Source: Sulfurospirillum sp. UBA4058
GTDB taxonomy: Bacteria > Campylobacterota > Campylobacteria > Campylobacterales > Sulfurospirillaceae
Reading direction: 5' to 3'
Length of the DNA: 64,000 nucleotides
Assembly (NCBI GenBank): GCA_002382085.1
Contig: DFZK01000014.1
Coordinates: 15,653-79,652 of the forward strand
Shown piece after piece: positions 2,137-57,322 of the stretch; the first letter of the stretch is position 1, and each line of letters begins with the position of its first letter. The notes beneath the pieces were generated by a model that did not search any database, was not told where the DNA came from, and worked only from the letters and a program-made list of their open reading frames with translations. Position numbers and translations under genes: made by a program.

Positions 2137-2690
2137 TTGTAGGCATTGAAGGCAAAATCGTCAAAAAAGAGATCACCGCACTGCACCTTAAAATCGCTTC
2201 GGGCATCACGTATAAAGTCTTTATTTCGCTGTTTAGCCTCGGCAAAATTACCTCTGACGCGATCAGCTTACATGTAACACAAATTATTCGCGAAGATCAA
2301 CATAGCCTGTACGGTTTCGTCGACGAAAACGAAAAAAAAGTTTTCGACACCTTAATCAAGTTGAACGGCATCGGACCTTCAACCGCACTTGCGGTCTGTT
2401 CGACGCTGAGTCCCGACGATTTTGCACAAGCGTTATTAAGCCAAAACGTTCATGCCTTTCAAAAAGTTCCCGGTATCGGACCCAAAAGCGCAAAACGTAT
2501 TTTAGTCGAATTAAGCGACTTCTCGCTTCACTTATCCGATGAAGAAAGTAGCGGCGGCAGTATGCTGGAAGCGACTATGGCTTTGGAAAGTTTAGGCTTT
2601 AAAAAAGACGCGATCAAAAAAGCCTTAGGTTCTCTTCAAGGCGGCGATACGCAAACACTTATCAAAGAAGCTTTACGCAAGCTTAGTTAA
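2133..2690 (+). CDS. ruvA: Holliday junction DNA helicase subunit RuvA
   Basis: Two helix-hairpin-helix motifs (LNGIGPSTALAV, VPGIGPKSAKRILVEL); length 185 aa. Confidence 0.9.
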   Translation: MIVGIEGKIVKKEITALHLKIASGITYKVFISLFSLGKITSDAISLHVTQIIREDQHSLYGFVDENEKKVFDTLIKLNGIGPSTALAVCSTLSPDDFAQALLSQNVHAFQKVPGIGPKSAKRILVELSDFSLHLSDEESSGGSMLEATMALESLGFKKDAIKKALGSLQGGDTQTLIKEALRKLS

Positions 2691-2704
2691 AAGAAGGATA
2701 CTTT

Positions 2705-3742
2705 ATGACTCTAGCCGTTTTATTCGGAGCACACAGTTTTGAGCACGAAATCAGCGTCGTCAGTGCGATTGCGCTCAAAAAAATACTTCCGAAAACCAAA
2801 ATCGTCTATATTTTCTGCGATTACGATCGTAATTTTTACCTCATTCCGACCGAAACGATTACTTCAAAACGTTTTAGTAGCGGTGCCTATAAAAACGACA
2901 CGTTATTAACTCTGAAACAAGGCGGCTTTTACGCAAAAAAATTCTTAGGCGAAAGCAGAGTCGATTTTGACGTTATGGTCAATCTCGTTCACGGAATGGA
3001 CGGCGAAGACGGAACACTCAGTTCCATGTTGACGTTTTTCGGTGTTCCTTTTATCGGTCCACGCACCGAAGGCTGTGCTATCAGTTACAATAAACTCTTT
3101 ACCAAACTTTACGCGCAAGAAGTCGGCGTAAACGTTCTTGACTATCAAGTGCTACGCAAAGATTCTCACATGCCGATTCGCATCGAATATCCCTTGATCG
3201 TCAAACCGCTCCGTTTGGGAAGTTCTATCGGTATTAGTATCGTCAAAGAGGAAAAAGAACTCGCATACGCTTTAGACGTTGCTTATGAGTTTGACGACAC
3301 CGTTTTGATCGAACCGTTTAAAAAAGGGGTCAAAGAGTTTAATTTGGCGGGATGCAAAACCGACGATTTTATTTTTTCGATCGTCGAAGAGCCTCACAAA
3401 GAGGAATTTTTGGATTTTGAGAAAAAATACCTCGATTTTTCACGCACAAAGCGCGTCAACGAAGCTATGATCGACGAACGGCTTGAACAATCGATTCACG
3501 AAGCGTTTAAAAGACTGTACGATCCTTTGTTTATCGGTGCGTTGATCCGTTGCGATTTTTTCGTGATCGACGATGAAGTCTATCTTAATGAAATCAATCC
3601 GGTTCCAGGAAGTATGGCCAATTACCTCTTTGACGATTTTGAAGGGGTTTTATACGCCTTGAGCTATCATCTTCCGCAGGGTATTGCGATGCCCAAAGCG
3701 TATCGTTATATCAACTCGATTCAAGCCGCAAAAGGGAAATAA
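2705..3742 (+). CDS. ddl: D-alanine--D-alanine ligase
   Basis: EHEISVVSA N-terminus, ATP-grasp segment IVKPLRLGSSIGISIV, C-terminal LNEINPVPGS. Confidence 0.9.
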   Translation: MTLAVLFGAHSFEHEISVVSAIALKKILPKTKIVYIFCDYDRNFYLIPTETITSKRFSSGAYKNDTLLTLKQGGFYAKKFLGESRVDFDVMVNLVHGMDGEDGTLSSMLTFFGVPFIGPRTEGCAISYNKLFTKLYAQEVGVNVLDYQVLRKDSHMPIRIEYPLIVKPLRLGSSIGISIVKEEKELAYALDVAYEFDDTVLIEPFKKGVKEFNLAGCKTDDFIFSIVEEPHKEEFLDFEKKYLDFSRTKRVNEAMIDERLEQSIHEAFKRLYDPLFIGALIRCDFFVIDDEVYLNEINPVPGSMANYLFDDFEGVLYALSYHLPQGIAMPKAYRYINSIQAAKGK

Positions 3743-3799
3743 AAGTCTCTTTTGTGTATGATTTTACATAAAATTATGCACAAAAAGAGGTTCACTACG

Positions 3800-4027
3800 A
3801 TGATGACCTATGCAAAAGACGAAATAATGACGGCGACCGATATGGTTCGAAACTTTAGTACGGTTTTGGGAAGCATTACCAAAGGCAAACAAAAGCGCGT
3901 CGTTATCGTTAAAAACAATCGCTTTGAAGCGGTGATGATCCCTATAGACGCTTACGAAAAAATGAGCGAAGCCGTCACTATTTTGGAAAAAATTTACGCA
4001 AGTTCAAAAAAGAAGAGTGATGGCTAA
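3800..4027 (+). CDS. small Phd/YefM antitoxin-like protein
   Basis: ATG at 3800 preceded by AAGAGG. Pattern TATDMVRNFSTVLGSI...RVVIVKNNRFEAVMIPIDAYEKM resembles the YefM/Phd fold. Its stop overlaps the start of the next gene. Confidence 0.45.
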   Translation: MMTYAKDEIMTATDMVRNFSTVLGSITKGKQKRVVIVKNNRFEAVMIPIDAYEKMSEAVTILEKIYASSKKKSDG

Positions 4028-4742
4028 GAGAGAGATTTTATTTGAAGGTACGCGTTATCGTCTTAGCTACGAAATGTTGCGACCGCATTGTGAAAAGACC
4101 GTTTTATTTCTACACGGCTGGGGAAGCACTAAAGAGAGCATGAAACATGCTTTTAACAAAACGTTCCCGCACTGTACACACCTCTATCTGGACTTGCCCG
4201 GGTTTGGAGATTCGAGTATCGAAGAGCGTATTTTAGATTCCAAGGCATACGCCACGATCGTCAACGCATTTTTAGATGCCCTTGCGATTCGTCCGGTGAT
4301 GATCGTCGGTCACTCTTTCGGCGGTAAAGTCGCAACCCTACTGCACCCCGAAATTTTAGTCTTACTTTCAAGTGCGGGTATCGTTGCCCCAAAATCCTTC
4401 AAAGTACGCTTCAAAATAGCACTTTTTAAATGTTTTAAACCGTTTTTTCCAAAACGTTTTTACCGCTTTTTTGCGACTAAAGACGTTGAAGGGATGAGCG
4501 AAACGATGTATGAGATATTAAAACGCGTCGTCAATGAAGATTTTAGCGATATATTTGCTAAAATTCGCTCTCAAACTTTTATTTTTTGGGGCAAAGAAGA
4601 TAAAGCAACTCCGCTCTCAAGCGGGGAAGCCATCCATGCCCTTATTTCAGGTAGCCGTTTTTTACCTTTAGAAGGCGATCATTTCTTTTTTTTACGAAAC
4701 GGCGAAACGATCGAAAAAATTATCATGGAGTCTTTGGGTTGA
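4017..4742 (+). CDS. alpha/beta-fold hydrolase
   Basis: HGWGS and nucleophile elbow GHSFGG; C-terminal GDH. The start could be GTG 4017 or ATG 4020. Confidence 0.75.
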   Translation: MMAKREILFEGTRYRLSYEMLRPHCEKTVLFLHGWGSTKESMKHAFNKTFPHCTHLYLDLPGFGDSSIEERILDSKAYATIVNAFLDALAIRPVMIVGHSFGGKVATLLHPEILVLLSSAGIVAPKSFKVRFKIALFKCFKPFFPKRFYRFFATKDVEGMSETMYEILKRVVNEDFSDIFAKIRSQTFIFWGKEDKATPLSSGEAIHALISGSRFLPLEGDHFFFLRNGETIEKIIMESLG

Positions 4743-5011
4743 GTACGTATCGGATGATTGTTACGGGGCGCGTTCAGGGCGTTAATTATAGAAAATACGT
4801 GGTCGAAGTTGCCCATGCACTTGAGTATTACGGATACATCCGTAACCGAGCGGACGGAAGCGTCGAGGTGGTCATGAATGCCGATTATGAAGAAGATTTG
4901 GAATTTTTTATCAGTAAATTGTACGACGGTTCTTTGTTCTCCGACGTGAAAAACGTTACATGTGAAAAAATTGAATCGATGCATTTTGACACCTTCGAGA
5001 AGAGGGCATAA
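4739..5011 (+). CDS. acyP: acylphosphatase
   Basis: VTGRVQGVNYRKYV signature, ~90 aa. ATG at 4754 is an alternative start. Confidence 0.8.
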   Translation: MSTYRMIVTGRVQGVNYRKYVVEVAHALEYYGYIRNRADGSVEVVMNADYEEDLEFFISKLYDGSLFSDVKNVTCEKIESMHFDTFEKRA

Positions 5012-8637: not shown

Positions 8638-9854
8638 AAATCTTAGTGCTCAATGCCGGGAGTTCTTCGATCAAGTACCAATTGATCAATATGGAAAACT
8701 ATGCCGTTATTGCAAGCGGCTTAATCGAGCAAATCGGAGAAAACTCATCGCTAGCGCGTATTAAATACCTCGATAAAGAGGGCAGTGAACAAAAAATTGA
8801 GCATAAATTGCCGATTCCAAACCATGAAATCGCCTTGAAACTGATGAGTGCACTTTTGATCGAATCAAGTGCCATTCACGATTTAAATGATCTTGACGGA
8901 ATAGGGCATCGCGTCGTACAAGGAGGCTCTTCTTTTCGCGAACCCGTGATCGTCGACGAATGGGTCGCTTCGGAAATCGAACGCTTGATTCCTTTAGCCC
9001 CGTTGCACAATCCGGGGCATTTAGCCGGCATCAAAGTCTCTTTGGAGCAAAGTCCTAGCGTTCCGCAAGTCGTCGTATTCGATACGGCATTTCATGCAAC
9101 GATGCCTCCGCATGCTTACATGTATGCAATTCCCTATCATTATTACGAAAATTTGAAAATCAGACGTTACGGTTTTCACGGAACTTCGCATCGTTTTGTC
9201 GCAAAAGAGGCGGCAAAATTTATGGGTAAAAAGCTTTCCCAACTCAATGCCATTACCCTGCACTTAGGAAACGGTGCTAGCGTGAGTGCCATTCAAAATG
9301 GTCAGAGCGTCGATACGTCTATGGGCTTAACGCCGCTTGAAGGCTTGATGATGGGTACGCGAAGCGGCGATATCGATCCCGCCGTTTTATTTTACCTTGC
9401 ACGCAAAGAGGGTTTGGATATCGAAACATTGGATCGCGTCTTAAATAAGGAAAGCGGTCTCAAAGGTATTTGCGGCATTAACGATATGCGTGAAGTCGGG
9501 CAAATGGCAGAAGAGGGTAACGAAAAAGCACAATTAGCATTGGAAATGTTCAACTATCGCATCAAAAAATACATCGGTGCTTACAGTGCCGCACTAGGAC
9601 GCGTCGATTGTATCGTATTTACCGGCGGTATCGGAGAAAATGCCGTAAACGTTCGCGCTAAGAGTTGCGAAAACTTGCAAAATTTAGGAATTGAAATTGA
9701 TCCGATTCTTAATCAAAAGCGTTCCTCCCGCACGATGCAAATTAGCACGAAAGAGAGTCCGGTAACGGTGCTTGTCATTCCGACAAACGAGGAATTGGAG
9801 ATTGCCTTACAGACGCAAGAAGTCATTGTAGCACACAAGCAAAAGCATTCATAA
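8634..9854 (+). CDS. ackA: acetate kinase
   Basis: KILVLNAGSSSIKYQL, GFHGTSH, VFTGGIGEN. The upstream part of the tracked ORF is read-through of the pta 3' end. Confidence 0.95.
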   Translation: MKILVLNAGSSSIKYQLINMENYAVIASGLIEQIGENSSLARIKYLDKEGSEQKIEHKLPIPNHEIALKLMSALLIESSAIHDLNDLDGIGHRVVQGGSSFREPVIVDEWVASEIERLIPLAPLHNPGHLAGIKVSLEQSPSVPQVVVFDTAFHATMPPHAYMYAIPYHYYENLKIRRYGFHGTSHRFVAKEAAKFMGKKLSQLNAITLHLGNGASVSAIQNGQSVDTSMGLTPLEGLMMGTRSGDIDPAVLFYLARKEGLDIETLDRVLNKESGLKGICGINDMREVGQMAEEGNEKAQLALEMFNYRIKKYIGAYSAALGRVDCIVFTGGIGENAVNVRAKSCENLQNLGIEIDPILNQKRSSRTMQISTKESPVTVLVIPTNEELEIALQTQEVIVAHKQKHS

Positions 9855-9861
9855 AACCTTT

Positions 9862-9888
9862 ACATGTAGGAGATTTTCTCCTACATGT
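9862..9888. terminator. perfect 12-bp-stem hairpin between convergent ackA and yqeY-like gene
   Basis: ACATGTAGGAGA-ttt-TCTCCTACATGT; each arm contains the ACATGT core of the iterated palindrome. Confidence 0.6.
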
Positions 9889-10340: not shown

Positions 10341-10490
10341 CTTTTCCTCCTGTATTCATACAATGTAAAATGTAAAAGATATTTTATAGTTTCTATCATA
10401 AAAACGTCCATAACAAAGGGTTTTTAACGACAAAATGACTGTTCTGAATCCTGAACGGATATAGGCGTACCCTATTGAGATGTTATATTT

Positions 10491-10520
10491 GTATTGGAAA
10501 CTATAATTTCCAAACTTAAA
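10491..10520. other. candidate dif-type (XerH/difH-like) recombination core site
   Basis: TTGGAAA-CTATAA-TTTCCAA, a perfect 7-bp inverted repeat around a 6-bp spacer. Intergenic, and 3.8 kb from a XerH-like gene. Confidence 0.5.
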
Positions 10521-10700
10521 TACACTCAAGAAATTCCCAAGTCATAATGAAGACTTTATATCATACCCTTTTAACCTAAAATAGACTCTTGATGCATGAT
10601 ACATGAAAAATCGATTGAGAAGGATTAAGGCAAATGATTCGGATAGATAATAAAGACTCTACCCCACTTATTGCCCCTCCCTTGGTGCATCTTCTTCTAG

Positions 10701-10714
10701 CTTTACATGTAAAG
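10701..10714. repeat. iterated palindrome copy CTTTACATGTAAAG (14-bp perfect)
   Basis: Read directly; lies 22 nt downstream of the lysozyme-like gene stop. Confidence 0.9.
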
Positions 10715-10735
10715 TTAAAAGTTTAGCTCAGACCC

Positions 10736-11179: not shown

Positions 11180-11200
11180 AGTTTTTTCTCCTTCTTTTAT

Positions 11201-12378: not shown

Positions 12379-12392
12379 CTTTACATGTAAAG
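12379..12392. repeat. iterated palindrome copy CTTTACATGTAAAG
   Basis: Supplies the ...Tyr-Met-stop end of the radical SAM gene. Confidence 0.9.
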
Positions 12393-17267: not shown

Positions 17268-19076
17268 TCAAATCTGAAAATGTTTCAAAAAAATCGGGTC
17301 GTTTTTGACGAAACCGCGTTCAATCAGGTTTTGAATCGTTGCCGGATCGCACGTCGTGTCATCCGGCCACTCCCTACGATAACCGTCAAGTTCCGTCTTC
17401 ATCGTCGCATCGATACCGATGAATTCATTCTCGATAAAAATATCACGCAACGCATCGATATTATTGACCACGCGCCAAAGGAGCATATACGCATTATCGA
17501 CGCTGTTGCTTTCATAATCTACGATTACAAAAAGCTTGAGATGATCGCTTAAGGGTTTCAAGGCTTCATAAATCTCTTTTCCGTTACGTTTTTTCTCAAT
17601 TGCCAAAACACAAATCGGCGTTTTAGTCTGCGTTTTGTACTGTTTCAACGCTTTTATTTCAGGAACAAGCGTAGTCACTTTGAGTAAAAGCTCCTGATCG
17701 CTCAGCAAAGTTTTTACCCCCTCTTCTACCATTTCGCCCGTAGCATCGACTCCCAGTTTCCCGCCAAAGAGCGCATTGGGAGAAGCATGATCCAAGGCGT
17801 CGCAAACACCTTCGCTAATGAGCAAACGTTTAGCACTCAAACGATCCAAGATATAATCGCTGATTTTCTCATAATCACTTAAAGCAGGCGCGTTTTCATC
17901 GACAAAGAGCGCATGCTTGACAAAGCTCATCTGCCCTACACCCCAAAATGCGTGCATAAATTGCTTAGCATGACCCGGATAAAGCACGTTCATCTTGGCT
18001 AAAATAAGATTGTGAAAAACACCGTTTTCGGGCATATTGTAGTCGATCAGATCGGGAGCGGTCGTTTTTAAGAGCGGCAAAAAGATACGCTCCGTCGCCC
18101 ACCCCATGTATTTATCCTCAAGCGGCGGTTTACCCACGACCGTGGCTTGATAGATTGGTTTTTCTTTACATGTAATGCAACTCACGTCCATGACGGGATA
18201 CGGCTCTTTGAGCGTGTAATAGCCCGTATGATCGCCAAAAGGCCCTTCAATTTCCATCTTACTCGGATCGACCCAACCTTCGATCACGATGTCGGTATCT
18301 TCGGGAATGTAAATCGGATTCGTTAAAGACTTCACCAAACGCGCGTTTTGATCTTTGATAAAACCGTAAAGCAAGAGTTCAAACATACCGATCGGCATCG
18401 GTGCTTGACCGCACCAAATATACAGAGGATCGCCGCCGATAGCAACGCTTACGGGCATTTTTTTGCCCGCTTTTTGATACTCATGGAAAAAATGCGCGCT
18501 ATCTTTGTGAATCTGCCAGTGCATTCCCAGACGATTCTTGTCATACACTTGCAGGCGGTACATACCGAGATTTTGCTTCGTACCGTCCAAACTTTGCGTA
18601 TAGACCTGCCCCATCGTGATGAACGGTCCGCCGTCTTGCGGCCACGTCGTTAAAATCGGAAAATCGTAAAGATTGGGTTCCGCGTAGACTTTCGTTTGAC
18701 AAACGCCCTTTTTGGAAAGACGTTTCGGAAGCGCGTTTTTAAGATTGAAAAGCGTTCCGAGCATCCCGAGTTTATCCATAAACGAGGTCGGCGGTTTCAT
18801 ATGCATCAAAGATTCGATCTGCTTGGCGACGTCGTCGGGATGTTTTCCGAAGATCAGTTCGGTCGCTTTTTTCGAACCGAAAACATTCATCAAAACCGGC
18901 ATATCAAACGCTTTTCCCAAACGCTTGCTGACGGGTTTGGTAAATAATAGCGCACGGGAGTCTTCTTTTTTAACTTCGATATACGCTAAATGCGGAATTT
19001 CAAGGTCAATGTCGAGTTCATCGTCAATGACGCGAAGCAAATCGTTTTGACGAAGCAGTTCAATGACGCGTTCCAT
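17268..19076 (-). CDS. UbiD-family decarboxylase (menaquinone/ubiquinone biosynthesis type)
   Basis: 602 aa with typical UbiD segments (GPFITMGQVYT, NLGMYRLQV, FGDHTGYYT). Confidence 0.85.
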   Translation of the reverse strand: MERVIELLRQNDLLRVIDDELDIDLEIPHLAYIEVKKEDSRALLFTKPVSKRLGKAFDMPVLMNVFGSKKATELIFGKHPDDVAKQIESLMHMKPPTSFMDKLGMLGTLFNLKNALPKRLSKKGVCQTKVYAEPNLYDFPILTTWPQDGGPFITMGQVYTQSLDGTKQNLGMYRLQVYDKNRLGMHWQIHKDSAHFFHEYQKAGKKMPVSVAIGGDPLYIWCGQAPMPIGMFELLLYGFIKDQNARLVKSLTNPIYIPEDTDIVIEGWVDPSKMEIEGPFGDHTGYYTLKEPYPVMDVSCITCKEKPIYQATVVGKPPLEDKYMGWATERIFLPLLKTTAPDLIDYNMPENGVFHNLILAKMNVLYPGHAKQFMHAFWGVGQMSFVKHALFVDENAPALSDYEKISDYILDRLSAKRLLISEGVCDALDHASPNALFGGKLGVDATGEMVEEGVKTLLSDQELLLKVTTLVPEIKALKQYKTQTKTPICVLAIEKKRNGKEIYEALKPLSDHLKLFVIVDYESNSVDNAYMLLWRVVNNIDALRDIFIENEFIGIDATMKTELDGYRREWPDDTTCDPATIQNLIERGFVKNDPIFLKHFQI

Positions 19077-19085: not shown

Positions 19086-20030
19086 TTAAAATACTTCGTT
19101 GAGTGCCATTGCCTCGGCACGCTCTAAAAGTGCCTTAGCTCCGCGTTCTACTACCTTCTGTGCCAACATTTTACCGATGTTCGCATACTCTTCACGTCTC
19201 GTCGTCAGCGACTCAAACATCATTTCAGAACCGTCGGGCATACCCAAAATCGCCCTTACATGTAAGCTTTCGCCTTTAATTTCGGCGTTCACGCCGATGG
19301 GCACTTGACAACCGCCTTCTAAAATCGTTACGAAATCGCGTTCCACGCGTGTTTCGATAATCGCATCTTGATCGTTTAAAACCGATACCAAACGCTCGAC
19401 TTCGGGATCATCGACGATTTCGATACCCAAAGCCGCTTGTCCGGACGCAGGAATCATCACCTCTTTCGAAATCGGTACGAAATGTGCCACTTCATTCATT
19501 AAGCCTAAACGGTTAATGCCCGCACTCGCTAAAATAATCGCATCAAATTCGCCCTCTTTAAGCTTGCGAATACGCGTATTGACGTTACCTCGAAGATTTT
19601 TGATCACAAAATCGGGACGCAGTTTCAGTAACTGCATTCTACGTCTCAAACTCGTCGTTCCGACAACCGCACCGTGAGGTAATGTTTCCAAAGAGGTGTA
19701 TTTTTCGGAGAGCATCGCATCGCGTACGTCTTCTCGCTGAGTGATGACGCCCAACTTGAGTCCCGCAGGAAACTCCATCGGAACGTCTTTGAGACTGTGC
19801 ACGGCGATATGCGCCTCACCTCGAAGCATTGCTTCTTCCAACTCTTTCGTAAACAGTCCTTTACCGCCGATTTTGGCTAAAGGCGTATCTAAAATTTTAT
19901 CGCCTTTGGTCATCATAACGGAGAGTTCGACCTCCAAGCCCGGATGCGCTTTTTCAAGCTCCGCTTTGACGTGTTCGGATTGCCAGAGAGCAAGTTTACT
20001 TCCTCGGGTTGCAATGATTAATTTTTTCAT
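19086..20030 (-). CDS. hemC: hydroxymethylbilane synthase (porphobilinogen deaminase)
   Basis: [28 protein letters not shown]. Confidence 0.95.
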
Positions 20031-24264: not shown

Positions 24265-25160
24265 TAAAATTTCCTCTCTATCATCTCGCGCATAATAGCG
24301 CCGAGTCCTACGTCTTCTTCGTTCGAAATTACATGTAAGGCTTCATAACCGAGCTTTTTCGCATAGGAAAGCGCATCTTCCAATCCTTGCGTCTCAGCCA
24401 TCTTCTGCTTAATCCACGCACTTTGCGCCGCGTCTAAAGGCTTCGCAAACAAGGAAAGCAAAACGGAACGATCTTTCGCGTCTAACTTTCGGTACGTATA
24501 AAGATAAGGTAAGGTCGTCTTTCCTTCTTTAAAATCGTTCAAAGAAGGTTTTCCGAGCGTTTCGCTCGATTGGGTGATATCCAAAATATCGTCGATAATT
24601 TGAAACGCCAATCCTAAGTTTTTACCGTAAAGAGCATAAATATCGGGATTTTTACCGGCAAGAATCGCGGCGGAAGCGGCGGAAGCTTCGATTAAAGACG
24701 CCGTTTTTTTATAAATCATATCCATGTAGCGTTCTTCGTCTGCATTAAACGCATCGGCAAGTTCGACGTCCAAAAGCTCACCCACGGAAAGAAGCGAAAC
24801 GGCGTTTGAGATCGTAAAAGCAATCTTTGGAGGTAAAAACGTCAATGCGCTAAACCCTTTGGAATACAGAATATCGCCGAGCATAATCGCGGTTTTATTG
24901 CCGAAAAGCGCATTTAACGAAGCTTCTCCGCGCCTCGTATCCGCATCGTCAATCACATCGTCGTGCAGTAAACTTGCGGCGTGAATCAATTCGACGATCG
25001 CCGCCAAGCGAATAGACTCTTCGCTGACGCCCGCAATTTTTAAAATCAATTTTGCGCGTAAACGCTTACCTTTTGGAACCTGATGAAACAGTTCAACACT
25101 TCTCGCATCCTTTAAAGAGGCGACCATTTCTAGCATCGCATTTTCGACTTTTTCCAGCAC
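24264..25160 (-). CDS. ispB: polyprenyl (octaprenyl-type) diphosphate synthase
   Basis: LLHDDVIDD and IIDDILD aspartate-rich motifs. Confidence 0.85.
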   Translation of the reverse strand: MLEKVENAMLEMVASLKDARSVELFHQVPKGKRLRAKLILKIAGVSEESIRLAAIVELIHAASLLHDDVIDDADTRRGEASLNALFGNKTAIMLGDILYSKGFSALTFLPPKIAFTISNAVSLLSVGELLDVELADAFNADEERYMDMIYKKTASLIEASAASAAILAGKNPDIYALYGKNLGLAFQIIDDILDITQSSETLGKPSLNDFKEGKTTLPYLYTYRKLDAKDRSVLLSLFAKPLDAAQSAWIKQKMAETQGLEDALSYAKKLGYEALHVISNEEDVGLGAIMREMIERKF

Positions 25161-26376: not shown

Positions 26377-27639
26377 ATGCATCAAGAAACACTTGCTCTT
26401 CACTACGGTTACGATAAACAAGCGTTCGGTACGATGTCGGTTCCGGTTTATCAAACGACGGCATACGATTTCGGTTCGGCAGAGACGGCCGCCGATCGTT
26501 TTGCTCTTCGAGAGCTCGGACCTATTTATACAAGACTGAACAATCCGACCACGGACGTATTGGAAGCGCGTATTGCCGCTTTAGAAAGCGCAGAAGCAGC
26601 CATTGCGACCGCCAGCGGACAAGCGGCCATTTTCTACGCGATCGCCAATTTGGCAGAAGCCGGCGACAATATTATCGTCGCCAAAAAAATCTACGGCGGA
26701 GCGACGACGCTTCTGACCCATACGCTGAAGCGTTTCGGCATTCATGCGAAAGTGTTTGAAAGCGATCATGCCGATGATTTGGAAGCATTAATCGACGATA
26801 AGACCAAAGCGATCTTTTTCGAATCGCTTTCCAATCCGCAAATCGCTATCCCCAACATCGAAAAAATCGTCTCTATTGCGCAAAAACATGCCGTAGTCAC
26901 CGTCTGCGACAATACCGTCGCAACACCGATTTTATTTCAACCGCTCTTAAGCGGCATCGACGTCAGCGTCCACAGTGCGAGTAAATACATTAACGGACAA
27001 GGCAGTGCTATCGGCGGTTTAATCGTCGAAGCCAAAGGCTTAAACGCCAAGTTGATCGGCAATCCGCGCTATGCACATTTTAACGAGCCCGACGAAAGTT
27101 ACCACGGTTTAGTGTATGCAAGCCTGCCGTTCCCGATCTTTTCACTCAGGATTCGTTTGTCGCTCATTCGCGATATCGGCGCAACGTTATCGCCGTATAA
27201 CGCGTGGTTGTTGATTCAAGGATTGGAGACCTTGGCATTACGTATGAAAGAGCACTCTTCCAATGCGTACAAAGTCGCGGCATTTTTAAAAGCGCATCCC
27301 AAAGTCATAAACGTTTCGTACCCAGGGCTCGAGAGCGATCCTTTACATGTAAGGGCAAAACGGTATTTTAAAAACGCGCAAACATCGGGTTTACTCAGCT
27401 TTGAAGTCGAAGGATTGGCGTTTGCCAAACAGATTTTAAACACGACCAAACTCTTTAGCGTCGTCGTCAATATCGGCGATTCCAAGTCGATTATCACGCA
27501 TCCGGCAAGCACGACGCACCAACAGCTTTCCAAAGAAGAGTTGGAAAAAGCGGGCATTAAAGAGGGTTTAATTCGCCTGAGTATCGGACTTGAAAACGTC
27601 GACGACTTAATCGAAGACTTGAAAATTGCATTAGGATAA
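26377..27639 (+). CDS. metY: O-acetylhomoserine sulfhydrylase (Cys/Met metabolism PLP enzyme)
   Basis: ATG 26377 after AAAGGA. ETLALHYGY N-terminus; PLP-lysine motif SASKYINGQG. Confidence 0.85.
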   Translation: MHQETLALHYGYDKQAFGTMSVPVYQTTAYDFGSAETAADRFALRELGPIYTRLNNPTTDVLEARIAALESAEAAIATASGQAAIFYAIANLAEAGDNIIVAKKIYGGATTLLTHTLKRFGIHAKVFESDHADDLEALIDDKTKAIFFESLSNPQIAIPNIEKIVSIAQKHAVVTVCDNTVATPILFQPLLSGIDVSVHSASKYINGQGSAIGGLIVEAKGLNAKLIGNPRYAHFNEPDESYHGLVYASLPFPIFSLRIRLSLIRDIGATLSPYNAWLLIQGLETLALRMKEHSSNAYKVAAFLKAHPKVINVSYPGLESDPLHVRAKRYFKNAQTSGLLSFEVEGLAFAKQILNTTKLFSVVVNIGDSKSIITHPASTTHQQLSKEELEKAGIKEGLIRLSIGLENVDDLIEDLKIALG

Positions 27640-34280: not shown

Positions 34281-35220
34281 GGTTGCGTTTCTCCGTCTTA
34301 AATTCTAAAAGCGTTGCAATCGTTTTCGTATATGCCGCATCTTCGCCGATTTGATGAAGGGCGCGAATCACGATACCGCAAATTTCATCGATTTCCAATG
34401 TTCGATGATGTTCCCAATCGACCAACATCGAAGGTTTGATCGAGTCGAAATGCGAAATCAACTCAAACATCGCATCGACGTCTTCTTGAGAAATCTTTAC
34501 ATGTAAGCTTCGTGCCGCACGTGCCGTCTCTTGCATTAAGCCGTAAACCAAAGCGGAAAGTTTGGTATCGTCGAATAAAACACCCGTTTTAACTTCCAAA
34601 AGTGCGCACAACGCATTCACGCCGTTATTGATAATCAGTTTTTTCCACAACTCTTGGCGAATATCGTATGTCGTATGCGTCGGAATGCCCGCTTCGTTGA
34701 AAGCTTTTGTCAAAGTTTCCAAAAATAACTCGTTTTCCGCCGTCGAAAACAACGTACCGACAATGGTCTCGGCTTCACCGACCGCTTCGATGCGCCCGGG
34801 GGCAATCACATGTGCGCCTATTTTACGCGTCAACGCTCCTATAACGTACTCTTCCGCAAAGTAATCGCATAAAATCACTTCGTTTTCAACACCGTTTTGC
34901 AATGAAACGATATAAGGAATTTTCACGTTTCCGCGTAATCGTTTTGCCAAAAAAATTGCGACTTCTCGCGTCGCCATCGATTTTGTCGCAAGTAAAATCG
35001 CATCGTATTCAAGCACGTCGATAGAAGCTAAAGCCTCCATCTCTACGGCGTGAACAGGCATAGAACAAGTCAAATCGGGATGAAATACGTGTAAACCTTC
35101 GGTACGCAACGCTTCCAAATGCGCACCGCGTGCGACCAATAAAACTTCATGACCTGCGTTCAAAAGTTTTGCGGCAAAATAACTTCCGACTCCGCCCGCA
35201 CCTAAAACGATAAACTTCAT
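34267..35220 (-). CDS. panE: 2-dehydropantoate 2-reductase
   Basis: MKFIVLGAGGVGSYFAAKL Rossmann N-terminus. ATG 35220 overlaps the hisD stop (ATGA). Confidence 0.8.
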   Translation of the reverse strand: MKFIVLGAGGVGSYFAAKLLNAGHEVLLVARGAHLEALRTEGLHVFHPDLTCSMPVHAVEMEALASIDVLEYDAILLATKSMATREVAIFLAKRLRGNVKIPYIVSLQNGVENEVILCDYFAEEYVIGALTRKIGAHVIAPGRIEAVGEAETIVGTLFSTAENELFLETLTKAFNEAGIPTHTTYDIRQELWKKLIINNGVNALCALLEVKTGVLFDDTKLSALVYGLMQETARAARSLHVKISQEDVDAMFELISHFDSIKPSMLVDWEHHRTLEIDEICGIVIRALHQIGEDAAYTKTIATLLEFKTEKRNHDRN

Positions 35221-40912: not shown

Positions 40913-42208
40913 TTAATCCTTGTAAAATAAAATAATTTTTTGAACAACCTGCGCAATGCGCTCTACCGAATCCAAATCGCACTCTTCGCGTACCGAGTGG
41001 GGATAACGAATCGTAGGTCCGATGGAGACTGCTTCGATTTTTTTCGATTGACGGGCGACGAGCTCACCGCATTCAAGTCCTGCATGAATCGCTTTAAAAA
41101 GAGCATGCGGGTAAAAAGTATGCATCGCCTCTCGTACGACGTCGGCAAAAGCACCGACGGAGGGCTTCCATGCTCCATGCCCGCCTTCAAGCTTACATGT
41201 AAAGCCAAAACCCTTAAAAAACGCCGTCGTTTCGTTTGCAAGTATAGCTAAATTTTCATCATCCATAGCACGAATCGAAACATCGACTCTAAGTTCGTTT
41301 TGCTTTTGCGCTACGATGCCGAGGTTCATACTGATAGAGGGAATATCCAAGGTCTTATCCCACGCACGGACACCTTGCGCAAAAGCACCCAAGGCACTCA
41401 CGATACGATCGCTTTGGGCGAGTGATTGCGTCAAAAGCGTATCTTCAAGACGACGTACCCGTATGCGAGGATCGGTAATGCCTAAAGGTTGAGAACATGC
41501 CACAATCGCCGTAGCACTTTTCGGAATCGCATTTAAACGTTCTCCGCCTTCGATCGAAACGAGTCGAATCTCTTTTTGATGCAATAATTCGTACGCCAAT
41601 GCTTTAATCGCCGAGGGGATCGATTTATCGATATCCACACCCGAATGCCCGCCTAAAAAATCAAACGCATGCACTTCGTAGAACAATGCCTCTTTTTCCA
41701 AAGGTTCGTACGTCAATTCCAAGCTTGCATGCAAATCAACGCCTCCGGCACAGCCGATGTAGATTTCACCCGCTTCTTCCGCATCTAAATTTAAAATATA
41801 ATCCGATCGTAGCGGCAACGAAAATCCCATTGCGCCTAAAAGCCCAACCTCTTCGTCGTTCGTAAAAAGGCATTCCAAGTCGTCGTTACGCTCCATCGCC
41901 CAAAACATTATCGCCATGCCCATACCGTTGTCCGCACCGAGCGTCGATGCACGTGCTTTGAGTAAAGAGCCTTCTTGATAAAGCACAATCGGATCGGTAT
42001 TGCCGATACACACCATATCGTAATGCGCTTGTAAACAAACGCGCGGCGTTCCTTTAACGCATAAAACGTTACCGCTAACGTCTTCTTGCACTAAATAGCC
42101 CAAATCGGACGCAAAATCTTTAATAAAATTCTTCATTTTTTCGGTACGGTAACTGCATCGGGGAACCGCACTAATCGCTTTAAAATGTTCTAAAATCGCT
42201 TGCATCAT
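40913..42208 (-). CDS. pepD: M20-family aminoacyl-histidine dipeptidase-like peptidase
   Basis: LGADNGMG, NDEEVGLLGA, 431 aa. Confidence 0.75.
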   Translation of the reverse strand: MMQAILEHFKAISAVPRCSYRTEKMKNFIKDFASDLGYLVQEDVSGNVLCVKGTPRVCLQAHYDMVCIGNTDPIVLYQEGSLLKARASTLGADNGMGMAIMFWAMERNDDLECLFTNDEEVGLLGAMGFSLPLRSDYILNLDAEEAGEIYIGCAGGVDLHASLELTYEPLEKEALFYEVHAFDFLGGHSGVDIDKSIPSAIKALAYELLHQKEIRLVSIEGGERLNAIPKSATAIVACSQPLGITDPRIRVRRLEDTLLTQSLAQSDRIVSALGAFAQGVRAWDKTLDIPSISMNLGIVAQKQNELRVDVSIRAMDDENLAILANETTAFFKGFGFTCKLEGGHGAWKPSVGAFADVVREAMHTFYPHALFKAIHAGLECGELVARQSKKIEAVSIGPTIRYPHSVREECDLDSVERIAQVVQKIILFYKD

Positions 42209-42469: not shown

Positions 42470-43371
42470 TGTCTGCTTTGGATACGATTCGCCAAGAGCG
42501 CCTCGCTTGGCTTGAGTGGAAAGATATTAAGCCGATGCGAGAAGCGCTCTCTTTTCTTCCGCAGTTTCAAACGTTACATGTAACGCTTGAAGATTGCATT
42601 CGCGTCGATGACGCTTCCCTCTCTTCAGAGGTGCGAAATCTCGTTCAAGAGTGCGCTAAGAAGCTCATGCCGTGGCGAAAAGGACCGTTTCAACTTTTCG
42701 ATACCTTCATCGATACCGAATGGCAAAGCTTTATCAAATACAATCTTTTAGAACCTCATTTTAATCTCGAAGGTAAAATCGTCGGCGACATCGGTTGTAA
42801 CAACGGTTATTATCTGTTTCGTATGCTGGCGCAAAAACCCCAAAAATTGGTCGGATTCGACCCTTCCGCTTTGTATAAAACCCAATTTGACTTTATCAAT
42901 CGTTTTGTCCAAAGCGACATCGTCTACGAAATGCTCGGCGTCGAGCACCTTCCCATGTACGAGCATCGCTTCGATACCCTTTTTTGCTTAGGCGTTTTGT
43001 ACCATCGAAGCGACCCGATTCAAACCCTCAAGTCCCTGTATCAAGGATTGAATCAAGGAGGCGAACTCTTCTTGGATACTTTTATGATCGACGGAGAGAG
43101 TCCCGTGGCACTCGCTCCTGCACATACCTATTCTAAAATCCCCAACGTCTATTTCGTTCCGACGGTTCAAGCCCTTTTCAATTGGCTCGAACGCGCGAAA
43201 TTTAAAGACGCGGAAGTCTTGGAAATCAAAGTCACCGATACGAACGAACAACGTAAAACCGAGTGGATTTTCGGCGAAAGTTTGGAACAGTTTTTAGATC
43301 CTCAAGATCCGAGTCGAACGATAGAAGGCTATCCCGCGCCTAAACGCGTCTACGTTAAAGCAAAACGTTAA
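42469..43371 (+). CDS. cmoB: tRNA U34 carboxymethyltransferase
   Basis: [21 protein letters not shown]. Confidence 0.85.
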
Positions 43372-44680: not shown

Positions 44681-44690
44681 TTACATGTAA
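44681..44690. repeat. iterated palindrome copy TTACATGTAA (intergenic, upstream of nadE)
   Basis: Read directly. Confidence 0.9.
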
Positions 44691-46679: not shown

Positions 46680-47610
46680 AAACCCGAAGTTCGTTTTATG
46701 GGTAGAAGAGTATCTTTTCTACCCGCATACGTTAAGCCATAAACTCCTCTCTTATGCTCTTTTACCGATTAGTTTTCTTTACTGTGCGATAACCCTTTTT
46801 AAACGTTATCGAGGGAAAAAGAAACGACTGAGTTTCGGTATTCCGATTATTAGCGTCGGTAATTTAACCCTCGGGGGCAACGGAAAAACGCCTTTTTGCA
46901 TTACGCTGGCGCAACAGTATGAAAATGTTGCCGTCATTTTGCGAGGATACGGAAGAAAATCGCACGGTATGCTTGTCGTAAGCGATCGCGGGCAAATGAT
47001 GTGCGATGCGATGGCAAGCGGCGATGAAGCGATGTTGTATGCCAAAGCCTTGCCCGACGCTACCGTCATCGTCAGCGAAGACCGCGTTGAGGCGATTCGC
47101 CTTGCGAAGAAAAAAGGGGCAAAACTCATCTTTTTAGACGACGGTTTTTCCAAAAGCCACATCGCTAAAATCGATATTTTGATGAAACCCAATCCTGAAC
47201 CGATCAATTCGTTTTGCCTTCCGAGCGGACCGTATCGAGAACCTCGTTTTTTATATCAAAAAGCCGATCTGATTATTAGTGAAGGCGTTGATTTTCTCCG
47301 TCGCGTCGAGGTTGTTGCTCCGACATGCAAAATGCTATTGGTCACCGCCATTTCCAAACCGAGCCGTTTAGACGCTTACCTTCCCGATAACGTTATCGGC
47401 AAAGTGGCTTTTCCGGATCATTACATGTACACGGAAAAAGAGCTTGAAACACTCCTACACGCGTATCAAGCAACATCGATACTGACGACGCAAAAAGACG
47501 CCGTCAAGATGGCGACGTTTGATCTACCGCTTTCTATTTTAAAACTCGACATCGACATCTTCCCCGAAACGCTGACAAAAATCAACGCACTTTTAGCTCC
47601 TAAACGCTAA
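46660..47610 (+). CDS. lpxK: tetraacyldisaccharide 4'-kinase
   Basis: P-loop GNLTLGGNGKTP. The start is uncertain (TTG 46660 or GTG 46672). Confidence 0.85.
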   Translation: MLKTVFKNPKFVLWVEEYLFYPHTLSHKLLSYALLPISFLYCAITLFKRYRGKKKRLSFGIPIISVGNLTLGGNGKTPFCITLAQQYENVAVILRGYGRKSHGMLVVSDRGQMMCDAMASGDEAMLYAKALPDATVIVSEDRVEAIRLAKKKGAKLIFLDDGFSKSHIAKIDILMKPNPEPINSFCLPSGPYREPRFLYQKADLIISEGVDFLRRVEVVAPTCKMLLVTAISKPSRLDAYLPDNVIGKVAFPDHYMYTEKELETLLHAYQATSILTTQKDAVKMATFDLPLSILKLDIDIFPETLTKINALLAPKR

Positions 47611-50012: not shown

Positions 50013-50719
50013 TTATCATCCCCGCACGTTTTGCGTCGACGCGTTTTCCGGGGAAAATTTTAGCTCCGATCGACGGTATTCCGATGGTGATTGCAACCGC
50101 CAAGCGCGTACAACATCTTGATAACGTTGCGATTGCCGCCGATACCGAAGAGGTCGCGGCATTAGCCCAATCTTACGGATTCAAGGCGATTTTAACTTCC
50201 CAAGAGCATCAAAGCGGAACGGACCGCATTAATGAAGCCGCATCCAAACTCCGCCTTGCCGCAGACGAGATTATCGTGAACGTGCAAGCGGATGAACCGT
50301 TTATCGAAGAAAGCGTCGTTCAAAGCGTTATTCAACGAGCCCGACAAACCGAAGCGATGATTACCAGCGCATGTAAGCCGATCGATCTTTTACATGTCAA
50401 AGATCCTAATCTCGTCAAGGTTATTTTAGATGCGAACGATCAAGCGATCTATTTTTCCAGAAGCGCGATTCCCTATGACCGTGAAGGCGGTTTTGAGGGT
50501 TATTTCGGGCATTTAGGGATTTATGCTTTTCGCAAAGAGGCATTGGAAACCTTTTGTGCACTTCCTTACGCACCTCTCGAACATATTGAAAAACTTGAGC
50601 AACTACGTGCTTTATACCACGGCTACAAAATCGCCATGGTAAAAGTTCAAAGTCAAAGCTTCGGTATCGATACTCCCGAAGATTTAGAGCGCGCATTACG
50701 CTTTTTTAAGCGTTCGTAA
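50009..50719 (+). CDS. kdsB: 3-deoxy-manno-octulosonate cytidylyltransferase
   Basis: VIIIPARFASTRFPGK. The GTG start overlaps the thrC stop (GTGA). Confidence 0.9.
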   Translation: MIIIPARFASTRFPGKILAPIDGIPMVIATAKRVQHLDNVAIAADTEEVAALAQSYGFKAILTSQEHQSGTDRINEAASKLRLAADEIIVNVQADEPFIEESVVQSVIQRARQTEAMITSACKPIDLLHVKDPNLVKVILDANDQAIYFSRSAIPYDREGGFEGYFGHLGIYAFRKEALETFCALPYAPLEHIEKLEQLRALYHGYKIAMVKVQSQSFGIDTPEDLERALRFFKRS

Positions 50720-56327: not shown

Positions 56328-56330
56328 GCT

Positions 56331-57134
56331 TTACTCCTTCACTTGATTGAAAAAATCTTCGAAATCACTCTCGATACGACCGAAACATAACATGTCGGCC
56401 ATTGCATTTTGATCTTTTAACTGAACCTTTTGCTTTACCGCCATGCATCCAAACGGAATAAATCCGTCAAAATACAAACCGTCTTCAATCGATTCGAGAA
56501 AATGCAACCGACGAAACCGCTCGATAAACGCATCGGTCTGAAACTCTTGAGCAATCGCGTACATCTCTTTTTCACCCTCTCTCAACAGCGGAAACTGTTG
56601 AAAAATCATCGAAAGCTTTTCATGTAACTCGTAAAGTCCGACCTGCACCGAAATATCTTTGAGTTCGCGCATCGTACAACCGATAAGGCGTTGAAGAAAC
56701 TGCTCTACTTTCGTGTTGTATTTTAGGGCAACCTCATGTGCGTCAAAGACTAAAATTAAAAAGCGATCTTGGACAGCAACGATCTCTTTAAAAATAGCTT
56801 CCGAACTTCTTTCGACGACGCAAAAAAGCTGATGTTCATTCGTGGAACGCTTTAACTTCTCGATATTTTTAATTTCGACGGGAAGCGACGTGTCGATGCG
56901 TTCTTGCCAATATCCCTGTAATGCTCGATGCGTCGGTACGCGCCCGCTACTAACATGGAGCTGAACTAACGAGCCCTCTTCGGAAAGCTTTTTAAAATAG
57001 ATACGAATCGTTGAAGGTGAAATACCTAACGTCATCTTCATTTGAAGTTCCGATGAGCCGATAGGCATTTTTGACTTCAAATAAGCTTGAATAATCGATT
57101 CTAAAATCAACGCTTGCTTCGAAGGTTTTTTCAT
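56331..57134 (-). CDS. hrcA: heat-inducible transcriptional repressor HrcA
   Basis: N-terminal wHTH (ILESIIQAYL...PIGSSEL) and first position in hrcA-grpE-dnaK. Confidence 0.9.
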   Translation of the reverse strand: MKKPSKQALILESIIQAYLKSKMPIGSSELQMKMTLGISPSTIRIYFKKLSEEGSLVQLHVSSGRVPTHRALQGYWQERIDTSLPVEIKNIEKLKRSTNEHQLFCVVERSSEAIFKEIVAVQDRFLILVFDAHEVALKYNTKVEQFLQRLIGCTMRELKDISVQVGLYELHEKLSMIFQQFPLLREGEKEMYAIAQEFQTDAFIERFRRLHFLESIEDGLYFDGFIPFGCMAVKQKVQLKDQNAMADMLCFGRIESDFEDFFNQVKE

Positions 57135-57137
57135 TTT

Positions 57138-57164
57138 TTAGCACTCTTGTTATTTAATTGCTGA
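57138..57164 (-). promoter_or_regulatory. CIRCE-like HrcA operator
   Basis: TTAGCACTC-N9-AATTGCTGA. One half matches the CIRCE consensus TTAGCACTC-N9-GAGTGCTAA perfectly and the other matches 6/9. Confidence 0.65.
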
Positions 57165-57168
57165 TGTA

Positions 57169-57198
57169 ATTATACAACATTGAGTCAAGTATTGTCAA
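57169..57198 (-). promoter_or_regulatory. sigma70-type promoter of hrcA-grpE-dnaK
   Basis: On the minus strand: TTGACA, 18 nt, TATAAT, immediately upstream of the CIRCE-like element. Confidence 0.6.
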
Positions 57199-57312
57199 GT
57201 AATGCTTTAAACATCGCCCTAAACGCGATATGGAAGAAAACGTTGTTGAGCTCCGGTCATATGCCGTTAATTTCATTGCCCACTTTTTCCCTTTTATGGT
57301 ATATATCGTTTC

Positions 57313-57322
57313 TTACATGTAA
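57313..57322. repeat. iterated palindrome copy TTACATGTAA at core/RTX-island junction
   Basis: Read directly. Confidence 0.9.

Follow-up and report, generated by a model that had tools for sequence, protein, structure and literature searches.

What keeps one short palindrome at a dozen places in a stretch of bacterial DNA, inside genes as well as between them? The question is raised by 64 kb of a contig from Sulfurospirillum sp. UBA4058 (hereafter the window, meaning the whole stretch that was analysed), in which the perfect 10-base palindrome TTACATGTAA, here called the word, occurs 12 times. We find that TTACATGTAA is over-represented approximately 100-fold in Sulfurospirillum DNA, and we regard it as close to certain that the word is real, lineage-wide and under selection at the level of the DNA. 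The DNA examined comprised the window and about 20 kb from each relative, mostly around the same genes.

A palindromic word far in excess of expectation

The 12 exact copies of TTACATGTAA lie at the coordinates listed in an earlier note on this DNA, whose hand estimate of 0.1-0.2 expected copies agrees with the 0.13 sites given by a zero-order model and the 0.07 given by an order-3 Markov model. In 100 dinucleotide-preserving shuffles of the window the word appeared 0.09 times on average and never more than twice, and its excess persists under Markov models of order 1-4. It is the commonest 10-mer in the window on any count, and the 10-mers ranked second to seventh are shifted versions of the same word (for example TTTACATGTA and CTTACATGTA).

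The enrichment is hierarchical. The central tetramer CATG, with 215 sites in the window against about 229 expected under an order-2 Markov model, is not enriched. ACATGT occurs 42 times, against an expectation of about 9 (order 2) to 21 (order 4), TACATGTA is found 17 times, and the half-extended form TTACATGT reaches 38 strand-counts against 1.7 expected. A further 15 copies differ from TTACATGTAA by one mismatch, where about 2.0 are expected (derived from the shuffles, which gave 2.11 for matches with zero or one mismatch together, 0.09 of them exact). In 13 of these 15 the ACATGT core is intact and the differences are confined to the outer bases. The earlier note had counted at least 11 such near-copies. 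The excess it saw is real, although the total is 15, the copy placed at 4958 should read 4956, and those at 6509, 12246, 13880 and 56618 had been missed. The 14-mer extension that it reported at 10701 and 12379 is present at both, as CTTTACATGTAAAG.

The DNA word, not a peptide, is enriched

Nine of the exact copies in the window lie in open reading frames (ORFs), belonging to genes on both strands, and three are intergenic. The coding copies fall into the frames already assigned to them in the earlier note: six read Leu-His-Val (in ruvA, hemC, ispB, metY, panE and cmoB), two read x-Thr-Cys-Lys (in a UbiD-family gene and an M20 peptidase gene), and one supplies the Tyr-Met-stop end of a radical SAM gene. 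These three reading modes exhaust the coding options; the third frame includes TAA and is therefore usable solely at the end of a gene.

To provide a codon-aware null, synonymous codons were permuted within each gene in 500 shuffles that kept the proteins and the per-gene codon usage unchanged. The ORFs of the window hold 9 copies of TTACATGTAA against 0.58 under this shuffling and 34 copies of ACATGT against 14.9, values that none of the 500 shuffles reached, whereas CATG (189 against 213) again shows no enrichment. Within the window, the excess of TTACATGTAA thus survives higher-order Markov and codon-aware nulls alike.

Leu-His-Val is the most over-represented tripeptide in the proteins of the window, with 20 occurrences against 3.3 expected. 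The reverse tripeptide Val-His-Leu occurs twice and is not enriched, and 7 of the 20 Leu-His-Val are spelled TTACATGTA, 12 times more than the 2.9% predicted by codon usage; the excess of the tripeptide is therefore a consequence of the DNA word. Other spellings that had been pointed out, TTG CAT GTC in fba and TTA CAC GTA in panE, are both present. The proposal of the earlier note that the DNA word and not the peptide is enriched holds, as the excess outlasts synonymous-codon shuffling and 32% of copies lie outside ORFs. The DNA word shapes the proteome, much as the proteome of Haemophilus is said to be shaped by its uptake signal sequence (USS).

Copies are much denser between genes. Three of the 12 window copies occupy the 5.5% of the window outside ORFs, and 29 of 91 copies in 321 kb of gathered Sulfurospirillum DNA occupy the 6.9% outside ORFs, which corresponds to approximately 1.3 copies per kb outside genes and 0.21 per kb inside, a difference of about six times. 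The word is also limited by coding constraint. Intergenic density is similar in divergent (0.94 per kb), tandem (1.54) and convergent (1.82) spacers, and copies within genes can be found anywhere, with a median relative position of 0.66. The word is therefore not a promoter or terminator element as such. A transcription-factor operator was likewise rejected, given that 68% of copies are inside ORFs and that divergent spacers are no denser in copies than convergent ones.

These data also bear on the possibility that the word is an artefact of composition, of codon usage, of a favoured Leu-His-Val peptide or of one dispersed mobile repeat. The encoding of the same tripeptide by six of nine coding copies would suit it, but codon shuffling and the Markov models of order 1-4 refute it. 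Between a quarter and a third of copies are intergenic, the Thr-Cys and stop-codon frames are used too, and the DNA word explains the Leu-His-Val excess, the reverse peptide showing none. Together with the unrelated flanks and the absence of indels at empty orthologous sites described below, this leaves such an artefact with a negligible chance of being the explanation.

The word is a property of the genus

To establish how widely the word occurs, we sampled about 20 kb around hemC from 80 species representatives and from named genomes. The window HemC is 93-94% identical to that of S. cavolei, 89% to S. diekertiae, 86% to S. arsenophilum and 85% to S. deleyianum. In 21 kb each, S. deleyianum DSM 6946 (CP001816) carries 12 copies against 0.05 expected, S. 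diekertiae (CP045453) 8 against 0.07, and S. arcachonense DSM 9755 6 against 0.07, while uncultured Sulfurospirillum species have 2-10 copies per locus. As in the highly iterated palindromes (HIPs) of cyanobacteria, then, a short perfect palindrome stands far above the composition and Markov expectations, here in the window and in three named species. No copy was found in 57 control loci (L033-L090 without L044; about 0.9 Mb, mostly Gammaproteobacteria) or in two Campylobacter-like loci, and metagenome-assembled genomes of low-GC Sulfurospirillaceae (L021-L024, L027, L028 and L044) yielded only 2 copies in 80 kb. The word accordingly characterizes Sulfurospirillum as a genus, the S. arcachonense group included, and is no peculiarity of one strain. 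Its density in this lineage is 1 per 1.7-5 kb, and by extrapolation the S. deleyianum genome would hold on the order of 1000 copies.

Our literature search found no prior description of TTACATGTAA, of ACATGT in Sulfurospirillum, or of uptake sequences of this kind in the phylum, in line with the earlier note, which knew of no such element in Campylobacterota. As far as we can tell this is the first such signature word in Campylobacterota, although it is the kind of thing that is already known elsewhere.

Viral contigs were searched for the 14-mer CTTTACATGTAAAG. Nearly all matches were single, and they gave no lead to a reader protein. One contig with several matches (L118, IMGVR_UViG_3300012979_000276) contains an array, close to one end at 360-560, in which TTTACA/CTTTACATGTAAAG iterons overlap; this is probably the origin or operator region of an AT-rich phage contig. 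It was rejected as a carrier of the word, the 14-mer match being a coincidence that stems from TTTACA repeats unrelated to it.

Copies are retained at orthologous positions

For an estimate of retention, 72 copies in the window and 21 related loci were mapped onto one another. At 70-75% identity of the surrounding sequence, 41% of comparisons show the 10-mer intact, against 6-7% for controls, and at 75-80% identity 61% do, against 11-14%; the controls are all other 10-mers or AT-matched 10-mers, and the comparisons are not phylogenetically independent, although the contrast is large. Intact copies are retained at orthologous positions 5-7 times more often than control 10-mers, so that, like HIPs, they are conserved between genomes beyond the sequence around them. 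One site approximately 900 bp upstream of hemC is kept all the way from Sulfurospirillum proper to the S. arcachonense group.

The flanks of the 12 window copies have nothing in common beyond one or two bases on each side, and past about 14 bp they are unrelated; the copies are dispersed in coding and non-coding DNA and, again as in HIPs, are not part of any longer repeat. At empty orthologous positions in the mapped loci there are no indels, only substitutions, from which it follows that copies are gained and lost via point changes. A dispersed mobile repeat resembling a repetitive extragenic palindrome (REP) or a miniature inverted-repeat transposable element (MITE) was rejected on these grounds: flanks are unrelated, differences are substitutions rather than insertions, most copies are coding, and only a 50-bp two-copy module recurs (in loci L012 and L013; see below). 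The possibility of such a repeat, which the earlier note had allowed for, can thus be set aside, as flanks are unconserved and orthologous differences are substitutions.

The effect on proteins can be seen at two genes. In the UbiD-family protein, the window and seven species that have the word read Ile-Thr-Cys-Lys where species that lack it read Ile-Thr-(Ser/Thr/Ala)-Lys. In HemC, members of Sulfurospirillum proper read Leu-His-Val-Lys/Arg, where outgroups have Ile-Asp-Ile-Ser, Val-Asn-Ile-Gln and others, and a second HemC position reads Leu-Thr-Cys-Lys/Asn in the S. arcachonense group only. In both proteins the rare residues His and Cys appear at variable positions precisely where the word is present. 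The word is kept by selection on the DNA itself, which alters protein sequences. Such a proteome footprint, with an excess of a tripeptide and placement at variable residues, is also what characterizes uptake sequences.

Could the same pattern be the neutral by-product of biased mutation or repair, for instance if near-matches were turned into the word by very-short-patch repair or by mismatch correction that follows methylation? A drive of this sort can make a word more frequent and mimic its conservation, and the one-step neighbours of ACATGT are all mildly depleted, with observed/expected (O/E) ratios of 0.44-1.0 for most. However, no transition neighbour is specifically depleted (ATATGT/ACATAT has an O/E of 0.56 in the window and 0.90 in relatives), and gains of the word took several substitutions, some of them non-synonymous (Ser, Thr or Ala codons to TGT). 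The preference for 14 bp exceeds any known short-patch repair context, and N6-methyladenine (m6A), unlike 5-methylcytosine (m5C), does not deaminate to give a mismatch. Conservation of the same kind in HIP1 was taken by Xu et al. (2018; PMC5861425) to speak for selection rather than biased repair. We consider this explanation very improbable. A product of Vsr-type repair in particular was rejected, since no neighbour is specifically depleted in both data sets and the known modification is m6A and not m5C.

Exchange of a copy between strains may have left a trace. Two S. cavolei genomes (L093 and L011) differ by 0.8% overall and by approximately 3.5% in a tract of about 1 kb (11485-12450) in the UbiD-family gene, at the centre of which lies a polymorphic copy of the word (ACATGT versus ACCGCT). 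From its sequence, the divergent tract looks like a recombination import that moved a copy of the word, in this single case.

Anatomy and dialects of the word

The preference extends outward from ACATGT. The base at position -1 is T in 58-82% of cases and that at -2 is T in 64-72%, position -3 is T or C, position -4 is C or T, and the other side mirrors this profile. The resulting consensus, (C/T)TTTACATGTAAA(A/G), forms a dyad of about 14 bp in which information falls off away from the centre; in short form, it is a strong ACATGT core with graded dyad flanks, YTTTACATGTAAAR. This graded symmetry, with a 6-bp core and weaker T-rich and A-rich flanks, is what a dimeric reader of duplex DNA would see. 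A polar chromosome word such as Chi or the FtsK-orienting polar sequences (KOPS) was rejected because a palindrome cannot be polar.

The form of the word differs among species. In S. deleyianum 12 of 16 cores are full 10-mers, whereas in S. cavolei strains only 1-2 of 16-19 cores are, and 10-11 keep one flank, often as ACATGTC. The S. cavolei core is still six-fold enriched (18 ACATGT against 2.9), and since the core is retained while one flank is lost, the pattern points to a shift or relaxation of the recognized form in this species and not to general decay. The window lies between the two: 12 of its cores are full, 14 half and 16 bare.

Pairs of copies are found at a few places. A module of about 50 bp upstream of hypothetical genes (L012, 8135-8245; L013, 17790-17900 and 19100-19210) has two copies of the word 32-33 bp apart, or about three helical turns, around an AT-rich spacer, and a pair spaced 22 bp apart is found in S. 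deleyianum (L096, 19111 and 19133). Spacings of whole helical turns would fit cooperative protein binding, although there are only 4-5 cases. The genes beside the two-copy module in L012, L013 and the island of the window described below encode a lysozyme-like protein, a lipoprotein, a radical SAM enzyme and a glycosyltransferase, none of which is DNA-binding.

Individual copies in the window

The exact and one-mismatch copies are collected in Table 1 together with a pair of cores between the convergent genes ackA and yqeY. This pair is predicted to form a terminator-like structure made of two word cores, with folding energies of -17.9 and -22.8 kcal/mol (z -6.7 and -6.3), and the same paired-core arrangement lies between ackA and yqeY in S. 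cavolei. Single copies of the word showed no significant RNA fold (z -1.1 to +1.1), strong folding being confined to the pair, and an Rfam search of the window found no known RNA. A strong core with weaker flanks, enrichment outside genes and a terminator-type pair such as that of ackA and yqeY are all features of uptake sequences.

Table 1. Copies of the word and the paired cores in the window
Feature	Position	Strand	Context
Exact copy	2268..2277	.	Inside ruvA, reads Leu-His-Val-Thr
Exact copy	10703..10712	.	Intergenic, 24 bp past stop of lysozyme-like ORF 10736-11179(-); full 14-mer CTTTACATGTAAAG
Exact copy	12381..12390	.	Tyr-Met-stop end of radical SAM ORF 12381-13124(-); full 14-mer; conserved in L013
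Exact copy	18166..18175	.	UbiD-family gene, reads Ile-Thr-Cys-Lys; polymorphic among S. cavolei strains
Exact copy	19256..19265	.	hemC, reads Leu-His-Val-Arg; outgroup residues unrelated at this variable position
Exact copy	24329..24338	.	ispB (polyprenyl synthase), reads Leu-His-Val-Ile; window lineage only; S. cavolei has TCACATGTAA
Exact copy	27343..27352	.	metY (Cys/Met pyridoxal phosphate enzyme), reads Leu-His-Val-Arg; also in S. cavolei, not in more distant species
Exact copy	34497..34506	.	panE (34267-35289, minus strand), reads Leu-His-Val-Lys
Exact copy	41193..41202	.	M20 peptidase gene 40913-42208(-), reads Phe-Thr-Cys-Lys
Exact copy	42574..42583	.	cmoB (42469-43371), reads Leu-His-Val-Thr
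Exact copy	44681..44690	.	Intergenic, divergent spacer, 13 bp upstream of nadE ORF start (44703)
Exact copy	57313..57322	.	Intergenic, 179 bp upstream of hrcA, 101 bp past stop of outer-membrane efflux gene
One-mismatch copy TTACATGTGA	4956..4965	.	
One-mismatch copy TTACATTTAA	6509..6518	.	Mismatch within core
One-mismatch copy TTACATGTAT	9116..9125	.	
One-mismatch copy TTACATGTAG	9860..9869	.	Left arm of ackA/yqeY hairpin
One-mismatch copy TTACTTGTAA	12246..12255	.	Orthologous to exact copy in L013 (19164)
One-mismatch copy TTTCATGTAA	13880..13889	.	
One-mismatch copy TAACATGTAA	13939..13948	.	
One-mismatch copy CTACATGTAA	31270..31279	.	Reads Pro-Thr-Cys-Lys
One-mismatch copy TGACATGTAA	37099..37108	.	
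One-mismatch copy TTACATGTAC	47421..47430	.	
One-mismatch copy TTACATGTCA	50390..50399	.	ACATGTC variant, typical of window lineage
One-mismatch copy TGACATGTAA	51329..51338	.	
One-mismatch copy TTTCATGTAA	56618..56627	.	
One-mismatch copy TGACATGTAA	60581..60590	.	
One-mismatch copy CTACATGTAA	60898..60907	.	
Hairpin pair of ACATGT cores	9862..9888 (cores 9862-9867, 9883-9888)	.	Between convergent ackA and yqeY, 12-bp stem

A strain-specific island of about 3.5 kb (10356-13900) lies between yqeY and a phage-type integrase gene (14384-15436). It carries a lysozyme-like ORF, a lipoprotein with a DUF1311-like N-terminus, a radical SAM enzyme and a family-2 glycosyltransferase; in the S. cavolei strains without it (L093 and L094), yqeY directly adjoins the integrase gene. 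The two perfect 14-mers on the island are shared with another Sulfurospirillum species, L013, which has parts of the island in common with the window.

Methylation of CATG in a congener

In S. barnesii SES-3, Blow et al. (2016; PMC4752239) described M.Sba3II (Sulba_2268) as an active Type II m6A methyltransferase with the motif CATG, 99.1% of whose sites are modified, and in the supplementary table of that study no nuclease is named in the M.Sba3II row, whereas one is for this strain's GATC system. In at least one member of the genus, then, both strands are methylated at the centre of the word, which bears out the remark of the earlier note that a CATG methylation target lies within it. Should S. 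barnesii have the word at the density of its relatives, methylation of 99.1% of sites would also imply that the word is not permanently shielded by a bound protein.

CATG is not avoided in the window (215 sites against 229, and 189 against 213 under codon shuffling), which is consistent with a solitary methyltransferase and no active cognate nuclease. A recognition site for restriction-modification (R-M) was rejected: ACATGT is found 42 times against the 9-21 expected, CATG about as often as expected, and the window has no R-M genes, its sole methyltransferase gene being that of the tRNA enzyme CmoB.

The methylation data lend themselves to an epigenetic or replication-linked account, in which the word is the context of an orphan CATG methyltransferase and is read when hemimethylated or unmethylated after replication. 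The reader would be part of a system like SeqA and Dam or a methylation-sensitive regulator, and the word would be enriched because it optimizes the reading. Consistent with this are the apparently solitary nature of the S. barnesii enzyme, the lack of CATG avoidance in the window, the frequent conservation of orphan methyltransferases with roles other than restriction (PMC4752239), and the embedding of orphan methyltransferase targets in HIP1 as well (PMC4390886). It is hard to reconcile with the finding that CATG itself is not enriched and only one extended context of it is, for a methyltransferase would not need 10-14 bp. Moreover, copies have no promoter preference, about two thirds of them are inside genes, and the window shows no origin-type clustering. 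On balance we judge this account improbable.

A possible role as a self-DNA tag

As the word behaves like HIP1 and like uptake sequences, and Campylobacter jejuni uses a methylated palindrome, the function we favour, tentatively and at somewhat short of even confidence, is that the methylated word may be a self-DNA tag acting in uptake or recombination. The methylated word would mark DNA as coming from the cell's own kind and would be recognized during natural transformation, at the point of uptake or in recombination afterwards. Incorporation would favour fragments bearing it, and in this way the word would spread and be maintained as far as coding constraint permits. The same model applies to USS, to the DNA uptake sequence of Neisseriaceae and to the methylated RAATTY of C. 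jejuni, and has lately been put forward for HIP1. The terminator hairpin pair, the polymorphic copy in a divergent tract and the island 14-mers shared across species are all uptake-like features. A more specific version, to which we give a rather low probability, is that Sulfurospirillum may use a methylated palindromic word of about 14 bp as an uptake or recombination signal specific to groups of species, uniting a sequence word with an m6A mark.

Several observations weigh against a self-DNA tag. Classical uptake sequences are non-palindromic and denser, at about 1 per kb against 1 per 1.7-5 kb here. We found no literature report of natural competence in Sulfurospirillum, and in the 64-kb window there is no competence, DNA methyltransferase or restriction gene, and hence no candidate there for a reader or writer. 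CATG methylation was measured in one congener, S. barnesii, the recombination tract is one case, and the statistics come from one region of each genome rather than being genome-wide. Finally, conservation at fixed positions over long divergence fits a position-specific function, such as one in chromosome structure, at least as well as it fits uptake-driven turnover; HIP1 sites are likewise conserved at fixed positions (Xu et al., 2018; PMC5861425).

The latter point leads to the most serious competitor, in which the word would be the binding site of a nucleoid-associated or chromosome-organizing protein that, as a dimer on the 14-bp dyad, shapes folding, segregation or the choice of division site. 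Selection would hold hundreds of sites at particular positions, in a manner resembling Noc and its sites (NBS), SlmA and its sites (SBS) or MatP and matS. The graded dyad profile is that expected of a protein binding DNA as a dimer, single sites show strong conservation at fixed orthologous positions (including the one upstream of hemC), and density is alike in all classes of spacer. On the other hand, several hundred to more than 1000 sites per genome are implied, 10-50 times denser than the known sites of Noc, SlmA or MatP. The near-complete CATG methylation in S. barnesii would oppose tight permanent occupancy if the word is equally dense in that species, one flank is lost at most S. cavolei sites, which would weaken a dimer site, and no candidate protein was found. 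HIP1 offers a precedent, as Xu et al. proposed a chromosome-organizing protein model for it (PMC5861425). We consider such a protein an unlikely but credible explanation of the word.

If Sulfurospirillum does use the word as a methylated uptake or recombination signal, this would combine the extended word of Neisseria and Haemophilus with the m6A mark of Campylobacter jejuni, and, alongside the candidate role of HIP1, it would mean that uptake-type words had arisen independently three times. Dialects would already be drawing apart in the genus, with the long form of S. deleyianum and S. diekertiae at one end and the core-only or half-site form of S. cavolei at the other. A free-living and culturable genus would then provide a tractable non-cyanobacterial model for the function of highly iterated palindromes.

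Other features of the window

The lower-GC end of the window (57423-64000; 38-41% GC) encodes an RTX-type calcium-binding repeat protein of more than 1100 residues that runs past the window end, a HlyC-family toxin acyltransferase, an HlyD-type membrane-fusion protein and a TolC-like outer-membrane protein. Judged by its genes, this appears to be a type I secreted toxin cluster that looks complete, which one would not expect in a free-living Sulfurospirillum. The region has no exact copy of the word and only two one-mismatch copies.

A second palindromic 10-mer, GTATCGATAC, has four exact copies (6035, 16641, 50664 and 62067) against about 0.3 expected at order 3, and two one-mismatch copies. 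It recurs mainly in loci of the same lineage (contigs of the same species and S. cavolei L093) and in one viral contig. The signal is weak, and is possibly due to chance or linked to ATCGAT.

Within 9086-30030 of the window, 15.6 kb are base-for-base identical to two contigs (L091 and L092) of hydrocarbon and groundwater metagenomes (SRR636597, PRJNA183510, and Joint Genome Institute 3300002446). The organism is therefore an environmental Sulfurospirillum from hydrocarbon-impacted water, a near relative of S. cavolei but separate from it, with about 10% DNA divergence.

Significance

Selected DNA words that extend over a whole genome are rare and informative: USS and the DNA uptake sequence (DUS) revealed sequence-specific uptake, and what HIP1 does has been disputed for 30 years. 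The word described here is a new and independent example in a different phylum, AT-rich, methylated at its centre in a congener, with protein footprints and with dialects in one genus, and it provides a second system in which the role of palindromes in uptake, recombination or chromosome organization can be tested. In practice, it offers a sharp taxonomic marker by which Sulfurospirillum contigs can be binned and foreign DNA within them spotted. If the word promotes transformation, its addition in methylated form to constructs could ease the genetics of organohalide and arsenate respirers that are relevant to bioremediation.

Comparison with known systems

The earlier note likened the word to DUS, USS and HIP1, purely by way of comparison, and the likeness is borne out. 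The USS of Pasteurellaceae (AAGTGCGGT core) and the DUS of Neisseriaceae (GCCGTCTGAA) reportedly share many properties with the word. They too are said to have a strong core with weaker flanks, to be enriched outside genes, to form terminator hairpins from pairs of copies, and to use tolerant reading frames with an excess of the encoded tripeptides; genus-level dialects and copies common to related species are reported as well. USS and DUS are, by the same accounts, non-palindromic and present about once per kb, whereas the word is a perfect palindrome and lacks their asymmetry. Uptake bias for these sequences has reportedly been shown by experiment, with ComP as the DUS receptor.

With R-M sites (ACATGT for PciI/BspLU11I, CATG for NlaIII) the word has in common a 6-bp palindromic core of Type II-like form and a central CATG that is methylated in a congener. 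Restriction sites are usually avoided in the host genome (PMC4687349), whereas ACATGT is over-represented 4-6 times and the extended word about 100 times.

HIP1 (GCGATCGC) and the alternate HIPs of cyanobacteria are, like the word, short perfect palindromes that are over-represented tens- to hundreds-fold. They are scattered over coding and non-coding DNA outside any longer repeat, are conserved at orthologous positions beyond background, and are lineage-wide with sub-lineage variants; HIP1 embeds the target of apparently solitary DNA methyltransferases, and the word may do so too. HIPs are also spaced quasi-periodically along the chromosome (10-90 kb); the word was followed over 64 kb of one genome and about 21 kb of each relative. 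The word is nevertheless not HIP1 proper, being AT-rich (TTACATGTAA) and found in Campylobacterota, where HIP1 is GC-rich and cyanobacterial. It is longer, with graded flanks to about 14 bp, it is sparser (1 per 1.7-5 kb, where HIP1 reaches more than one per gene), and its mark is m6A at CATG, as measured in S. barnesii, in place of methylation at GATC and CGATCG. The function of HIP1 is debated between chromosome structure and transformation (PMC4390886, PMC5861425, 10.1101/2024.09.10.611283, 10.64898/2026.06.24.733823). Methylated HIP1 raises transformation, and a role as an uptake tag has been proposed for it (10.1101/2024.09.10.611283; 10.64898/2026.06.24.733823).

The same phylum as that of the word provides RAATTY of C. 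jejuni, which, in the summary given in 10.1101/2024.09.10.611283, is methylated by CtsM and serves as a self-DNA signal for natural transformation. Like the word, RAATTY is palindromic, and it carries m6A from a solitary methyltransferase. It differs in being a degenerate 6-mer that the AT-rich genome provides every 60 bp or so, with no extended over-represented word. In the case of the word, the tetramer CATG shows no enrichment, which is confined to one of its 10-14-bp contexts. Among relatives whose mechanism is known, C. jejuni stands nearest; it recognizes its own DNA by a methylated palindrome.

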